A DNA stretch of 64,000 nucleotides from Paludibacteraceae bacterium (GCA_016937795.1 JAFGVV010000065.1:6429-70428), one strand, 5' to 3'; shown: positions 48,225 through 51,726, counted from the first letter of the stretch. The notes: generated from the letters alone by a model not told the origin. Numbers and translations are program-made.

Positions 48225-48243
48225 TTGTGTTTATTTTACACTA
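48225..48243. promoter_or_regulatory. Putative NrtR operator 1
   Basis: TTGTGT-N7-ACACTA; fits the GT-N7-AC NrtR consensus and lies just upstream of the -33 box. Confidence 0.75.
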
Positions 48244-48345
48244 AGTATTGAAAATATTTATGTCAATGATTTAAAATGTTGATATGTAATGATTAATGAT
48301 GCTTTGGAAAGAAGTTTTTTTTTTGTTGAGAATTTGTCCGGAAAT

Positions 48346-48978
48346 TTATTTTTTAATAAACCCGGCTATGATTTGAGCCATTTCTTTAGTTCCTTCTTCG
48401 TTGGGATGAATATGGTCAGGGAAGAGATCGTGTCTGTCTCTAAGAGGTGTATTGAGGTCGATAAGCTCAATTTTATTCTTTTTGGCAATCTGTTTTATCA
48501 CCGGAATAACTCCCGCATTCAATGTTGAATCGTTGATACCCCATTGTGTGGCAAAAACCGGAACGGGTATGCACATAATTATTTCAGGAGCATTTGGCAG
48601 CGATTTAAGTGTGTCGATCAAGGTTTGATAATCGGCTTCGAATCGAGCGCTGTTCCAGTTTTGTGGTTTGGTGTCGTTCGTACCGAGTTTAATAACCACC
48701 ATATCGGGTTCGAAAGCAAAAATATTGGCAAATTCTTTGGTGTTCCAGTACGAGAAATCGCCTTCTTTCTGAAGTGTAGTTCCACCTTTACCGGAATTTA
48801 GCACCTGAAAACTCTCGCCAAGCAAACTGTCGAGCCGGGCCGGGTAGGAGTATTTGTTTTGCTGAAAAATTCCTGCACCCTCGGTAATGCTATCGCCAAT
48901 GCAAACTATGCGGGTAGGTTTATGGGTGCAGCTTATCATCAGTAAGGCAAGTAGAGCAAAGAATGTAATTTTTTTCAT
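48346..48978 (-). CDS. SGNH/GDSL-family esterase lipoprotein
   Basis: Lipobox MISC, GDSITEG, NSGKGG, KLGTND and DHIHPN catalytic blocks. Confidence 0.9.
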   Translation of the reverse strand: MKKITFFALLALLMISCTHKPTRIVCIGDSITEGAGIFQQNKYSYPARLDSLLGESFQVLNSGKGGTTLQKEGDFSYWNTKEFANIFAFEPDMVVIKLGTNDTKPQNWNSARFEADYQTLIDTLKSLPNAPEIIMCIPVPVFATQWGINDSTLNAGVIPVIKQIAKKNKIELIDLNTPLRDRHDLFPDHIHPNEEGTKEMAQIIAGFIKK

Positions 48979-49101
48979 TTTGTATCGGATTTTGAATATA
49001 AATAGCGTTAAATGATTTCAGGTTTATTTGTCTGTTGAACCATGAAGAACTATGAGCATAAACAAACACACTGTAGTATTGTTTAATTACAAAATCCGTA
49101 T

Positions 49102-49120
49102 TAGTGTCACATGAACAATA
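49102..49120. promoter_or_regulatory. Putative NrtR operator 2
   Basis: TAGTGT-N7-ACAATA, just downstream of the esterase promoter (-7 box TATTTTTG at 49141-49134). Confidence 0.7.
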
Positions 49121-49170
49121 AGTAAAATCTGTGCAAAAATAAATGATAATTTTGAGATATACAAGTAAAA

Positions 49171-49189
49171 TAGTGTTTATATTACACTA
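49171..49189. promoter_or_regulatory. Putative NrtR operator 3 (perfect palindrome)
   Basis: TAGTGT-TTATATT-ACACTA. Confidence 0.82.
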
Positions 49190-49212
49190 AGTTTTGGGTG
49201 CTCGCTGTTTAA

Positions 49213-49231
49213 TTGTGTGTTTTTGACACTA
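49213..49231. promoter_or_regulatory. Putative NrtR operator 4
   Basis: TTGTGT-N7-ACACTA, 42 bp from operator 3 and upstream of the nrtR -7 box TACCTTTG (49261-49268). Confidence 0.75.
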
Positions 49232-49300
49232 CTGCTATTAAATGTATGAAATTATTTTTTTACCTTTGCAGCCAATAAATATTATAAAAACTGATTATTC

Positions 49301-50044
49301 ATGCCTGAAACCAATCCATTATTAGCTAATATACTTTCCACAATCTCGGTTGATTGTGTGATTTTCGGATATTTTGAGAATGAATTAACTGTGTTAGTTC
49401 GTAAGGAGTTTGTCCCTCTCAATGGCGAAATAGTGCAGGAGTGGAAATTGCCGGGCAATCACGTTCGTCGTGATGAAGATATAAATGCTACTGCTGCCCG
49501 AATATTGAAAGAGCAAACGGGGCTCGAGGATATTTTCGTGAAACAGTTCATGGTATTTAGTGATCCCGACCGATTGAAACGTCGTCCGCAGGATTTTGAA
49601 TGGGTGAAGCCCCGCCTGATTGACGAAAGGGTAATTACGGTTGGTTTTTATTCGCTTTTAAATGTAAACTCTATAGATAATTCGAAACTGATTGAAATTG
49701 CCAAATGGGAAAATGTGAATGAAATTTCCGACCTGATGTTCGATCATAAAGATATACTTGATGAAGCGCTTGTAAAACTTCGTTACGACCTGATACATGA
49801 GCCTCTGATATTCGAACTTTTGCCTCCGAAATTTACGCTTACGCAAATGCAGAAAGTGTATGAGGTGATTTTTAATACAGAATACGATAAACGAAATTTC
49901 CGTCGTAAGATTAATAAAATGGATTATCTGATTCAGCTGGACGAAACACAAAAGGGTGTTTCGCATAAACCTGCCCGTTATTACAGCTTCAATCGCGAGA
50001 TATACGAAAGTACGCGCACGCAACGCTGTGACTTTGGAATGTAA
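49301..50044 (+). CDS. NrtR-family transcriptional regulator (Nudix-like domain plus winged helix)
   Basis: SVDCVIFG, WKLPG..V...E....AARIL.EQTGL (degenerate Nudix box), FTLTQMQKVYE, DKRNFRRK and KPARYY. Confidence 0.92.
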   Translation: MPETNPLLANILSTISVDCVIFGYFENELTVLVRKEFVPLNGEIVQEWKLPGNHVRRDEDINATAARILKEQTGLEDIFVKQFMVFSDPDRLKRRPQDFEWVKPRLIDERVITVGFYSLLNVNSIDNSKLIEIAKWENVNEISDLMFDHKDILDEALVKLRYDLIHEPLIFELLPPKFTLTQMQKVYEVIFNTEYDKRNFRRKINKMDYLIQLDETQKGVSHKPARYYSFNREIYESTRTQRCDFGM

Positions 50045-50050
50045 TAAAAC

Positions 50051-50088
50051 AAAAGAGAGAAGGTTTTTGAACTTTCTCTCTTTTTTTT
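50051..50088. terminator. Terminator between nrtR and SemiSWEET
   Basis: AAAAGAGAGAAGGTT/AACTTTCTCTCTTTT stem with a T-tract. Confidence 0.8.
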
Positions 50089-50368
50089 AAATCGATAACT
50101 TGTCGATTCCCCTGATCGTATTGGTGAGTTTTACTACAAATATGTACACGATAGGCACCAGTGAAAGTGCATTGGCCAGAATCAAAGGCGCATCGAACAA
50201 CATAATGCCATACACCAGCCAAAGGCTTATACATACTACTACAATACAATACATCAGTAGCGAAATGCTGTTGGTATCTTTTGTTTTATACACTTTTATG
50301 GCTTGCGGAAACTGGTTAAGAACCGATAGGAGGGAAGCCGAAAAACCCACAATTTCTACTGCTGTCAT
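50087..50368 (-). CDS. SemiSWEET (PQ-loop/MtN3) sugar transporter
   Basis: Three-helix pattern, FPQAIKVYKTK, LWLVYG and PLILAN; start MTAVEIVG (50368). Confidence 0.88.
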   Translation of the reverse strand: MTAVEIVGFSASLLSVLNQFPQAIKVYKTKDTNSISLLMYCIVVVCISLWLVYGIMLFDAPLILANALSLVPIVYIFVVKLTNTIRGIDKLSI

Positions 50369-50417
50369 TTGTTTAATTTTTGCTGCAAATATAATCAAAT
50401 TTTCAATTCGGAAATAC

Positions 50418-50453
50418 AAAAAAGCTGTTCAATAAATGCATTGAACAGCTTTT
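50418..50453 (-). terminator. Terminator after the triple-CBM protein
   Basis: 14-bp stem AAAAGCTGTTCAAT/ATTGAACAGCTTTT. Confidence 0.82.
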
Positions 50454-50473
50454 CTTTAATGATCTGGTTTCTA

Positions 50474-51643
50474 TTATCTTACTGATACTTTTTTGGTTGC
50501 ACCGTCAACTTTTACAATGTAAAGTCCTTTGTTCAGTTTGTTTGAAACAAATGTTCCCGAAGCAACTGCCGACTGCATAACGCGTCCGCTAATATCAAAA
50601 ATCTGAACATCCGATTTTACATTTTCAATAGTCAGCATTTGATTTTGACTGTAGATTGTGTTCTGAGCTTCTTTAATATTCGAAACTGCACTGATGCTTT
50701 TTTTCCATGCTACAACTGTCACTGCTATATTGGCGTCTTCCGGATAGGTTGCCGAACGGTCGGGGAATTTTTCTCCGGCTGCGTCAGCTTCTACGTAAGC
50801 CCAGTCAGCTTTATTGTAAAGGTTATAGAAAATTTTCATTACCATAGGGATGGTGAATGTGAAAGTACCATCCTGATTTTTTTCACCTTTCATTGCTTTT
50901 GTCATATCCCAGCCAAGGAAGTCGCCCTGAATAAATACGCTGTCGGTACCTGCAGGAACAGTAGCGGTTATTGTGATTGTACCTGTTTTTTCAGGATCGA
51001 AATATGCTTTGAAAGAATTTACAACTACTGATACAGTATTTTCTGTTGTGCCATAAATAAAGTTGTCTTTCGGATCGCCCTGTTCGTACGACCATGCGGG
51101 TCCGGCTACAAATTTGAATTCCATATTTTTGGCATCGGCGCTGAATACTTTGATGCTAAAGATTTTTCCGTCCACAGTTTCAGAGTCAAAAGTCATTTTG
51201 AATTCTTCTGAAGGGCTTTTCCAACCATTGAAGCTACCTACGAGGTAAAGCACTTTAACTTCCGATGGTACAAGTGCTTCGATAGTCACTTCGCGTTCGT
51301 CGGGGCTGAAAACTTCCAACCAGTTTACAACTACATCAGCAGCACTCCATGTTCTGTCGGTAATAGCTGTACCGTCAGCGTTTTTTTCAATATACTTCCA
51401 GTCCGGACCGCTCAGGTACTGGTATTTCATTCCCTCGGTAGCTGTAGGCAGGTCGATGGTGTAAGTAGTTTCGTTTACTTTGGTAAGTGGCGTGGCGGAA
51501 GGACTCCAGCCATTCATTTCGCCGGTAATGTAACAGGCTTTAGTGCCTGCTGGTACTGTTACTGTATAGGTCAATGCCGATACGGACTGAACTAAAAACA
51601 ACATAGCTACAAGAGCTACAAATGAAGTAAAGATTTTTTTCAT
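50474..51643 (-). CDS. Non-catalytic secreted protein with three CBM20/CBM48-like starch-binding repeats and a T9SS C-terminal domain
   Basis: Three repeats of ~90 aa with the pattern VP....YxxG.xxGW....W.Y.E. Has a signal peptide and a CTD (IFDISGRVM...KGLYIVKVDGATKKVSVR). Confidence 0.75.
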   Translation of the reverse strand: MKKIFTSFVALVAMLFLVQSVSALTYTVTVPAGTKACYITGEMNGWSPSATPLTKVNETTYTIDLPTATEGMKYQYLSGPDWKYIEKNADGTAITDRTWSAADVVVNWLEVFSPDEREVTIEALVPSEVKVLYLVGSFNGWKSPSEEFKMTFDSETVDGKIFSIKVFSADAKNMEFKFVAGPAWSYEQGDPKDNFIYGTTENTVSVVVNSFKAYFDPEKTGTITITATVPAGTDSVFIQGDFLGWDMTKAMKGEKNQDGTFTFTIPMVMKIFYNLYNKADWAYVEADAAGEKFPDRSATYPEDANIAVTVVAWKKSISAVSNIKEAQNTIYSQNQMLTIENVKSDVQIFDISGRVMQSAVASGTFVSNKLNKGLYIVKVDGATKKVSVR

Positions 51644-51684
51644 GATACTAATGATTAATGTTTGAAATAAAGTTTATTTATACA

Positions 51685-51726
51685 ACGTGTCAAAAATACA
51701 CAAAGTTTATTGTCTTTACAACACTT
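51685..51726. promoter_or_regulatory. Tandem putative NrtR operators 5 and 6 overlapping the promoter of the triple-CBM gene
   Basis: ACGTGT-N7-ACACAA (51685-51703) covers the -7 box TATTTTTG (51698-51691). TATTGT-N7-ACACTT (51708-51726) covers the -33 TTG. Confidence 0.7.

Follow-up and report, generated by a model that had tools for sequence, protein, structure and literature searches.

The window, the whole stretch of 64,000 nucleotides analysed here, carries a PUL operon led by a GH3 gene, an SGNH esterase gene, a regulator gene (nrtR), a SemiSWEET gene, a gene for a secreted protein with three CBM-like modules (the triple-CBM gene) and a starch operon. These genes and their terminators lie as follows.

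36765-48129, minus: predicted beta-1,6-glucan PUL operon, GH3 first (Pfam, PDB matches, BT3309-3314 composition)
45826-48129, minus: GH3 (Pfam)
42701-45706, minus: SusC (Pfam)
41162-42685, minus: SusD (Pfam)
39687-41138, minus: DUF5016 surface glycan-binding protein, SGBP (Pfam)
38181-39629, minus: GH30, GH30_3-like (Pfam, PDB match)
36765-38141, minus: GH30, GH30_3-like (Pfam, PDB match)
48346-48978, minus: SGNH/GDSL esterase with a lipoprotein-like signal peptide (Pfam Lipase_GDSL_2, 5e-27)
49301-50044, plus: regulator, 247 aa, degenerate Nudix domain and NrtR/AraR winged helix (Pfam, PDB match)
50051-50084, plus: terminator hairpin between the convergent nrtR and SemiSWEET genes
50087-50368, minus: SemiSWEET sugar transporter, convergent with nrtR (NCBIfam SemiSWEET_2, 4.8e-22; Pfam PQ-loop)
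50474-51643, minus: T9SS-secreted protein with three CBM-like beta-sandwich modules and a type A C-terminal sorting domain
51884-51914, minus: terminator of the starch SusC-SusD-SusE/F operon (14-bp stem, then a T run)

Both GH30 proteins find their best match in the endo-beta-1,6-glucanase BT3312 (5NGK; 4.6e-95 and 1.1e-82), and by its structural genes the PUL is of the Bacteroides thetaiotaomicron beta-1,6-glucan type, with enzyme specificity predicted. The SusR-type regulator that accompanies PULs of the BT3309-3314 type is missing beside this one. The SGNH esterase matches the C-terminal part of the NCBIfam acetylxylan esterase model AxeA1 (3e-61), below its cut-off.

The protein encoded at 49301-50044 had been placed in the NrtR family by the first-pass annotation, and domain searches confirm this: an N-terminal Nudix fold (NUDIX, 3.5e-8; 34 bits, cut-off 21.1) is joined to a C-terminal winged helix that matches NrtR_WHD (3.9e-27; 94.6 bits, cut-off 27) and AraR_C (1.8e-8; 35 bits, cut-off 23.8). 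Its best PDB match is BtAraR (5BS6, E = 2.3e-41), whose crystal operator is AAGTGT-N7-ACACCC. The residues Lys179-Arg180-Asn181, with which BtAraR reads GTGT, are conserved in all regulator orthologs, and so are the sugar-pocket residues Arg86, His131, Phe129 and Phe36 (BtAraR numbering). BtAraR and XylR as nearest relatives, together with Arg86, His131 and the Lys-Arg-Asn triplet, place the protein on the AraR/XylR branch; within the pocket, Gly48 has become Asn and Phe49 has become His in all but two orthologs. The Nudix signature GX5EX7REUXEEXGU reads G-NHVRR-DE...R-I-L-K-E-Q-T-G-L, with RE changed to RI and EE to EQ both in the window protein and in the orthologs, a degenerate box that predicts loss of Nudix hydrolase activity. 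Orthologs at 69-99% identity occur in about 20 genomes of the same genus and the next-best matches reach at most 45%, and judged by sequence the regulator is a Paludibacter-specific paralog of XylR/AraR.

Two narrower identities were rejected. An ADP-ribose-responsive NrtR proper is opposed by a score of 95.2 bits against the NCBIfam equivalog NF050029, whose cut-off is 400, and by ADPR-contacting positions that are replaced as in AraR. An AraR ortholog, sensing L-arabinose, would show the conserved Arg34/Gly47-Gly48-Phe49 pocket and linkage to araMPRDAB; here the pocket has Lys or Arg followed by Gly-Asn-His, and no ara genes lie nearby. A separate AraR-like paralog sits in the ara locus on C21 of the same genome, and a separate XylR-like paralog lies on C43.

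Around these genes stand seven operator-like sites, listed without strand and with their genome-wide rank under a position weight matrix (PWM).

48158-48176: proximal operator of the GH3/PUL promoter, TAGTGTCGAAATGACAATA, rank 4
48225-48243: distal operator of the GH3/PUL promoter, TTGTGTTTATTTTACACTA, exact pattern match, rank 2
49102-49120: proximal operator of the SGNH promoter, TAGTGTCACATGAACAATA, rank 9
49171-49189: distal operator of the SGNH promoter, TAGTGTTTATATTACACTA, score 27.4, rank 1
49213-49231: operator of the nrtR promoter (putative autoregulation), TTGTGTGTTTTTGACACTA, exact pattern match, rank 12
51685-51703: proximal operator of the triple-CBM gene, ACGTGTCAAAAATACACAA, rank 3
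51708-51726: distal operator of the triple-CBM gene, TATTGTCTTTACAACACTT, rank 5

All six 19-mers reported by the first-pass annotation (48225, 49102, 49171, 49213, 51685 and 51708) are present; the seventh site, at 48158, was absent from it and has the -7 box of GH3 on one side and the start codon on the other. The GT-N7-AC core that had been claimed as common to NrtR-family operators agrees with the published 21-bp family palindrome (PMC2330246), and all seven sites are palindromes of about 21 bp with this core, close to the regulator and its putative targets. Loose matching, with up to two mismatches, gave 15 matches in the window against 10.2 +/- 3.2 expected, a count without significance by itself. 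In the 3.74-Mb genome the strict pattern TWGTGT-N7-ACACWA has three matches, all within 1 kb at this locus, and of the 35 genome matches with at most one mismatch 5 lie in 538 bp of its intergenic DNA. When the genome was scanned, as had been proposed, with a PWM trained on 65 sites taken from other genomes only, ranks 1-5 went to 49171, 48225, 51685, 48158 and 51708, the first being the best of 3.74 million positions. By exact pattern, single-mismatch pattern and PWM, well-matched sites are thus strongly non-random in the genome.

The sites are arranged around recognizable core promoter elements.

48215-48219, minus: -33 element TTTGG of the GH3/PUL promoter, after distal operator 48225
48188-48195, minus: -7 box of the GH3/PUL promoter, TAAATTTG, after the -33 element
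49134-49141, minus: -7 box of the SGNH promoter, TATTTTTG, 13 nt upstream of proximal operator 49102
49261-49268: -7 box of the nrtR promoter, TACCTTTG, 29 nt downstream of the end of operator 49213
51691-51698, minus: -7 box of the triple-CBM promoter, TATTTTTG, in the spacer of operator 51685

The assignment of sites to the promoters of the GH3-SusC-SusD-SGBP-GH30-GH30 operon, the SGNH esterase, nrtR and the triple-CBM gene was correct, and these placements are conserved across the genus. A PUL-type promoter consists of an operator, a -33 TTTGG, a -7 box and a second operator 11-13 nt past the -7 box; at GH3, 11 nt separate the -7 box from the downstream proximal operator 48158, which covers the expected start of transcription, and the SGNH distal operator 49171 fits the same geometry. 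The pair formed by a distal TAGTGT-N7-ACAC and a proximal operator, spaced 67-70 bp, recurs in 22/22 promoters from 18 genomes, with the -7 box 28-30 nt after the distal operator (exactly 29 in 20/22) and, in most of them, TTTG(G) at -33 following that operator. At about 6.5 helical turns, this spacing does not obviously favour looping between two dimers on the same face. The triple-CBM gene has a tandem pair of operators, with centres 23 bp apart, that covers the core promoter as had been claimed, with the -7 box inside the spacer of 51685 and 51708 over the -33 region. The nrtR promoter has a single upstream-type operator and no clear -33 TTTG; its operator-to--7 offset is 27-30 nt in all 12 orthologous loci examined.

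This last promoter, and the distal operators, which stop about 5 nt short of the -33 element on its upstream side, where activators typically sit, could mean that the operators are real but that the regulator activates transcription, or works in both directions, at upstream-type sites. Such a role seems improbable: all PUL-type promoters carry a further operator across the start of transcription, the triple-CBM operators lie on the -7 and -33 elements, both of them repressor positions, and the characterised relatives BtAraR and SoNrtR are ligand-released repressors (PMC4666351). Repression thus remains the preferred sign of regulation.

The sites follow the regulator across the genus. About 40 Paludibacter loci carrying a regulator ortholog retain them, and every ortholog has two or three upstream. 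At the triple-CBM gene, the proximal operator is kept in 7/9 aligned upstream regions, and most of loci L053-L074 have it too; the distal operator is kept in 5/9 of the aligned regions. The homologous PULs of three genomes that lack the regulator, G002, G009 and G011, have no promoter-region site scoring 11 or more. A DUF6377 (SusR-like) gene adjoins the PUL in G002 and G011, both without an NrtR ortholog, and no such gene occurs in the window or in any fetched NrtR-containing locus.

The co-occurrence also bears on whether the sites are bound mainly by the AraR-like or the XylR-like paralog, leaving the adjacent regulator another role. Some cross-binding by the paralogs is conceivable, their sites sharing the GT-N7-AC core and C21:63905, C43:97081 and C43:97112 scoring 13-19 with our PWM. 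G002, G009 and G011, however, keep both paralogs and the PUL and have none of the sites, and the paralogs' half-sites differ (TATTGTA/TACAATA for the XylR-like protein, AAGTGTAT/ATACACTA for the AraR-like one), which makes a paralog a very improbable main binder and leaves the adjacent regulator as the preferred one.

The first-pass annotation had read the regulon as a bridge between the beta-glucan and starch loci, coupling use of the two glucans, with the triple-CBM protein as an NrtR-controlled, starch-binding accessory of the neighbouring Sus locus. The protein's modules do weakly resemble alpha-glucan-binding modules: Pfam finds AMPK1_CBM (CBM48; 5e-10) and CBM53 (1e-4) besides Por_Secre_tail (also TIGR04183), the N-terminal region of GlgB is matched at 7e-5, and with an AF2 model (pLDDT 79.5) Foldseek returns CBM26, CBM20 and CBM41 modules. 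The gene also adjoins the starch SusE/F gene, both in the window and in L053. In at least seven relatives, though, it is tied to beta-1,6-glucan PULs, as their distal end in G033, G025, G032, G024 and G020 and inside them in G002 and G011; its outer neighbour is a different PUL in G027, the closest relative, and differs again in L070-L074. A strong terminator (51884-51914) parts it from the starch operon, and the starch locus carries its own LacI regulator and, in the genome-wide PWM scan, no operator site, its SusC promoter included. Elsewhere in the genome the sole starch-related candidate is a site upstream of a pullulanase gene, and a comparison with 16 relatives shows no conservation of it. 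Gene order in relatives indicates that the position beside the starch locus is incidental; coupling to starch is unlikely and the bridge is not supported, and we read the triple-CBM gene as part of the beta-1,6-glucan regulon.

In nearly all orthologous loci SemiSWEET adjoins nrtR, and in G018, L059, L061 and L063 it carries an operator site of its own. In the window it has its own -7 box and no operator site, and a 17-bp hairpin separates it from the triple-CBM gene. It is a possible member of the regulon and a candidate inner-membrane importer of the PUL product.

We consider it likely that the protein at 49301-50044 is a sugar-responsive repressor of the AraR/XylR branch that shuts off the beta-1,6-glucan PUL and its accessory genes through these operators. 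As a one-component cytoplasmic regulator, it would bind as a dimer to 19-21 bp palindromes of the form TTAGTGT-N7-ACACTAA. The operator pair at the GH3-PUL and SGNH promoters would bracket the core promoter, one dimer just upstream of the -33 element and the other over the start; the tandem pair at the triple-CBM gene would place two dimers directly on the -33 and -7 elements; and the lone upstream-type operator of nrtR would serve autoregulation. Without inducer all these units would be repressed. An imported breakdown product of beta-1,6-glucan (glucose or gentiobiose would be our guess), possibly brought in by the adjacent SemiSWEET, may bind the dead Nudix pocket, and the ligand-bound regulator may then let go of DNA, by analogy with BtAraR and L-arabinose. 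Glucose is an inducer of poor specificity, and the identity of the ligand cannot be read from sequence. A locus for uptake of fungal beta-1,6-glucan is most likely what the regulator switches off, and the regulator represents a new branch, by specificity, of a known family. In Paludibacter it has probably replaced the SusR-like regulator found with related beta-1,6-glucan PULs.

A broader scenario, somewhat less probable than its negation, is that a XylR-derived, cytoplasm-sensing Nudix repressor displaced, in Paludibacter, the SusR-like regulator of related beta-1,6-glucan PULs, became the sole switch of a SusCD PUL through bracketing operators and co-opted the triple-CBM and SemiSWEET genes. 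If so, the triple-CBM protein would be an unrecognised CBM type that binds beta-1,6-glucan or fungal wall, and the regulator one branch of an undescribed, gluco-sugar-sensing NrtR radiation running glucan loci across Bacteroidota.

The canonical NrtR of Shewanella oneidensis and Synechocystis, an ADP-ribose-responsive repressor of NAD metabolism (PMC2330246), shares the fold and the palindrome with the Paludibacter regulator, which differs in having Phe for Asn43, as in AraR, Gln for Lys76 and Asp for Arg98, and a regulon without NAD genes. Bacteroidota XylR (BT0791 type; PMC3878776, PMC2330246) is the nearest branch outside the genus, where homologs at 38-45% identity in other Bacteroidales families adjoin xylulokinase genes. 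The motif core and the insertion after Arg86 are common to XylR and the Paludibacter regulator; the gene context of XylR is different, and the genome's own XylR-like paralog has a GSI pocket instead of GNH and its own TATTGT-N7-ACAATA-type sites.

The closest characterised system is BtAraR (BT0354; 5BS6, 5DD4, 5DEQ), a proven, L-arabinose-released repressor and a predicted co-regulator of SusCD PULs, at which it has predicted sites (PMC4666351). Both proteins join a dead Nudix domain to a winged helix, keep Arg86, His131 and Phe129 in the pocket, and read GTGT-N7-ACAC through Lys-Arg-Asn, and each has one target with tandem operators spaced about 23-24 bp. They differ in sequence (about 40% identity), in the Asn and His that replace Gly48 and Phe49, and in a 14-aa insertion after Arg86 and a conserved C-terminal tail in the Paludibacter protein. 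Its targets are a beta-1,6-glucan PUL, without a monosaccharide catabolic operon, and it is apparently the sole regulator of that PUL, in contrast to AraR-controlled PULs, where HTCS regulators are present too; for AraR, no pair of operators bracketing a promoter at a spacing of 67-70 bp is described.

The beta-1,6-glucan PUL of B. thetaiotaomicron (BT3309-BT3314) likewise has SusC, SusD, a DUF5016 SGBP, a GH30_3-like endo-beta-1,6-glucanase and a GH3 beta-glucosidase, and, as the first-pass annotation had held, uses another type of regulator, the SusR-type BT3309 (PMC5481569). In the Paludibacter locus a cytoplasmic NrtR-type regulator takes its place, GH3 leads an operon with two GH30 genes, and the predicted regulon also takes in the SGNH esterase and the T9SS triple-CBM protein, perhaps with SemiSWEET as well.

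The DNA comes from a metagenome-assembled genome of a Paludibacter sp. Pfam and NCBIfam searches assigned the genes surrounding the regulator nrtR as follows.

36765-38141, minus strand, GH30
38181-39629, minus strand, GH30
39687-41138, minus strand, DUF5016 protein (SGBP)
41162-42685, minus strand, SusD
42701-45706, minus strand, SusC
45826-48129, minus strand, GH3
48346-48978, minus strand, SGNH esterase
49301-50044, plus strand, the regulator, with NUDIX and NrtR_WHD/AraR_C domains
50087-50368, minus strand, SemiSWEET
50474-51643, minus strand, three CBM-like modules with a T9SS sorting domain (the CBM gene)
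51935-58043, minus strand, starch-type SusC-SusD-SusE/F operon
58406-59452, plus strand, LacI regulator

The top match of both GH30 proteins was BT3312 (PDB 5NGK; E values of 4.6e-95 and 1.1e-82), a GH30_3 endo-beta-1,6-glucanase of B. thetaiotaomicron, and the gene set of the GH3-to-GH30 polysaccharide utilization locus (PUL) is identical to that of PUL1,6-beta-glucan (BT3309-3314), in which the SGBP is a DUF5016 protein and the regulator, BT3309, is of the SusR type (PMC5481569). The first-pass annotation was therefore correct both in calling this a beta-1,6-glucan PUL and in stating that B. thetaiotaomicron controls its version with a different type of regulator. Within the PUL, a 14-bp hairpin (39645-39676, minus strand) lies in the 57 nt that separate the DUF5016 SGBP gene from the first GH30 gene, and it may act as an internal attenuator or RNA stability element of the operon.

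All six 19-mers proposed as NrtR operators (48225, 49102, 49171, 49213, 51685, and 51708) were found when the region was read directly, and a pattern search with TWGTGT-N7-ACACWA added one more, at 48158-48176, which falls downstream of the -7 box of GH3 and ahead of its start codon. A loose pattern allowing up to two mismatches matched 15 times in the window, compared to 10.2 +/- 3.2 times in shuffled sequence, which is not significant alone. The strict pattern, however, occurs only three times in the 3.74-Mb assembly, with the matches at 48225, 49171, and 49213 clustered within 1 kb, and 5 of the 35 genome-wide matches with at most one mismatch fall in the intergenic DNA around the SGNH gene, which totals 538 bp. 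The genome scan suggested in the first-pass annotation, run with a position weight matrix (PWM) trained on 65 sites from other genomes only and listing matches from a score of 9, placed 49171, 48225, 51685, 48158, and 51708 at ranks 1 to 5, with 49102 at rank 9, 49213 at rank 12, and mostly the paralogs' own sites in between. Two single weak sites (C62:74072 and C32:42691) adjoin unrelated genes. Matches at 8953 and 8976 (TAGTGT-N7-CCACTA, one mismatch, 23 bp apart, spanning 8953-8994) scored below the listing threshold and are not regulon sites but units of a tandem array with a 23-bp period between vWA and M49 peptidase genes. An Rfam search of 47900-52100 returned nothing relevant.

The Bacteroidota -7 box, TAnnTTTG, served to locate promoters, as a sigma-70 promoter scan is uninformative for this phylum. 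One cassette is common to the GH3 and SGNH promoters and to 20 further promoters from 17 other genomes. It consists of a distal operator (ctTAGTGT-N7-ACAC), about 5 nt, a -33 element (TTTGG), a -7 box beginning 29 nt past the distal operator in 20 of the 22 promoters (28 to 30 nt overall), a further 11 to 13 nt, and a proximal operator (TATTGT-N5-TGACACTA). The two operators lie 67 to 70 bp apart from center to center, their strong half-sites point outward, and the geometry places the proximal operator over the expected transcription start. The SGNH promoter (48979-49190) repeats the two operators, -7 box, and spacings of the GH3 promoter (48130-48345), and where relatives lack the SGNH gene, nrtR and GH3 are direct divergent neighbors, which suggests that the esterase gene arrived along with a duplicated control cassette. 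The promoter of nrtR itself carries one operator of the upstream type, ending 27 to 30 nt before the -7 box at 12 of 12 loci. The CBM gene has another layout: its two operators are spaced by 23 bp, the proximal one containing the -7 box in its spacer and the distal one lying over the -33 region. When nine otherwise diverged CBM gene upstream regions were aligned, the proximal operator was kept in seven and the distal in five. This pair resembles the tandem sites of BtAraR, which are 21 bp long and 3 bp apart (PMC4666351).

BtAraR is also the regulator's best solved relative (E value of 2.3e-41). The residues with which it reads GTGT (Lys179, Arg180, and Asn181) are conserved in the regulator, and its crystal operator, AAGTGT-N7-ACACCC, has the same geometry as the window sites (PMC4666351). 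In the ligand pocket, the L-arabinose-binding residues Arg86, His131, Phe129, and Phe36 are retained, and Gly48-Phe49 of BtAraR is replaced by Asn-His in all orthologs but two, which have Gln or Lys in place of the His. Like XylR-like proteins, the regulator has 14 inserted residues after Arg86. Its Nudix box is degenerate, and it fails the NCBIfam equivalog for ADP-ribose-responsive NrtR (95 versus 400 bits). Its genome encodes two further paralogs, an AraR-like one inside an ara locus (C21), where a site (AAGTGTATTGTATACACTA, C21:63905) lies beside the gene, between araM-like and araD-like genes, and a XylR-like one beside xylose genes (C43), preceded by a tandem TATTGT-N7-ACAATA/ACAGTA pair (C43:97081 and C43:97112). 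The best homologs outside the genus (38 to 45% identity) adjoin xylulokinase genes and are therefore XylR. Given these XylR homologs and the two paralogs, the regulator forms, as judged from sequence, a third branch, confined to the genus, of the sugar-sensing AraR/XylR group.

Operator positions and the behavior of BtAraR support a model in which a repressor released by its ligand would occlude four promoters; here we infer that the regulator binds the sites, that it represses, and which sugar it senses. Glucose or gentiobiose is a plausible effector, and one could speculate that Asn-His in place of Gly-Phe, where the C5 of arabinose packs, accommodates a hexose.

Orthologs of the regulator (69 to 99% identity) occur in about 20 genomes of the genus Paludibacter, separated by a clear gap from paralogs (45% or less). 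Every orthologous locus has two or three sites upstream of the regulator, as do 22 further loci from a named genome collection. A strong homolog of the query GH30 gene (GH30a; at least 40% identity) is present in 8 of the 17 Paludibacter genomes without a regulator ortholog, and in three of these eight (G002, G009, and G011) the loci compared were homologous beta-1,6-glucan PULs in whose promoter regions no site reached a score of 11. The PULs of G002 and G011 are flanked by a DUF6377 protein, whose G011 copy has a weak, below-cutoff match to a GerE-type helix-turn-helix; the family, which we take to be of the SusR type, is represented among the control genomes by B. thetaiotaomicron, and no member was found in the window or in any fetched NrtR-containing locus. 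The sites thus track the regulator rather than the PUL or either paralog (AraR or XylR), and the regulator appears to have displaced a SusR-like one.

Regulon content varies within the genus. In more distant species (G006, G031, and G016; loci L047, L050, and L051), the genes under the operators have diverged, with operator pairs preceding a GH3 of only 29 to 33% identity, another SusCD pair, and extra GH30 genes; in G016, an SGNH-like gene lies about 3 kb downstream of an operator pair. G033 carries two modules of GH3, operators, nrtR, and SemiSWEET on separate contigs (L036 on C11, 83% identical to the query, and L037 on C64, 80% identical), which reflects either a genuine duplication or a bin mixing two strains.

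The first-pass annotation had the regulon bridging the beta-glucan locus and the neighboring starch locus through the CBM gene. The CBM gene is a regulon member, yet it does not belong to the starch locus. It lies inside the PUL in G002 and G011, adjoins yet another SusCD pair at L070 to L074, and is separated from the starch operon in the window by a strong terminator (51884-51914). In the closest relative, G027, its outer neighbor is a CBM paralog (412 amino acids) followed by an unrelated SusD. An insertion sequence with a 534-amino-acid transposase gene has entered the 5' end of the G027 CBM gene (L034 15441-17045, contig G027:C37), removing its first ~13 codons and displacing the two operators by 1.7 kb. 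No site is present at the starch SusC promoter; a match at 58139 has two mismatches and scores under the PWM threshold. The sole starch-related candidate elsewhere in the genome, C56:12239 upstream of a pullulanase gene (PWM score of 18.9), was rejected as not conserved, since upstream regions of pullulanase orthologs in 16 relatives, including one 95% identical, all lack a site. Another high-scoring match, C2:373 (TAGTGTATTTAATACACTT; PWM score of 18.5), lies 50 bp upstream of a gene for a 1,015-amino-acid LamG-repeat T9SS protein and is kept upstream of that protein's only ortholog, in G027 (L115). Conservation in G027 alone and a sequence of the AraR-like site type (AAGTGTAT...ATACACTA) assign it to the AraR-like paralog, and the LamG-repeat protein may be an arabinan-related secreted protein of that regulon. 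The CBM modules themselves show weak sequence and fold similarity to alpha-glucan CBMs, and Foldseek with a model of the protein gave generic beta-sandwich and starch-CBM matches at TM scores too low to decide the ligand. Context favors beta-1,6-glucan or the fungal cell wall.

The SemiSWEET gene adjoins nrtR at almost all loci, has its own site in G018 and at L059, L061, and L063, and, in G006 and G001, follows a GH3 gene that has a site upstream. In the window, it is preceded by a 17-bp hairpin and a separate -7 box, and its upstream region contains no site even at a PWM score of 0. SemiSWEET is likely an importer of the PUL product and possibly a member of the regulon in the window.

Regulators of PULs are usually described as sensing oligosaccharides outside the cytoplasm, as with HTCS, SusR, and ECF/anti-sigma pairs. 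Within one genus, control of the same beta-1,6-glucan PUL appears to rest with a SusR-like protein in some genomes and with a small, putatively cytoplasmic repressor of the Nudix type in others. As a natural instance of one regulator displacing another, it is clean and open to direct comparison. The operator motif and fixed cassette allow the regulon to be predicted from sequence and easily tested, and could offer a compact sugar-inducible promoter/repressor pair for Bacteroidota. Three poorly understood accessory genes, encoding the SGNH esterase, the T9SS triple-CBM protein, and SemiSWEET, can be provisionally assigned to the use of fungal beta-1,6-glucan. In the searchable literature, we found no NrtR-family regulator described as dedicated to a glucan PUL, and for Bacteroidota the family was reported only with arabinose and xylose, AraR being described as a co-regulator of some PULs (PMC4666351). 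These findings add a new branch of specificity, and a new regulon, to a known family, in a system that is itself of a known kind.
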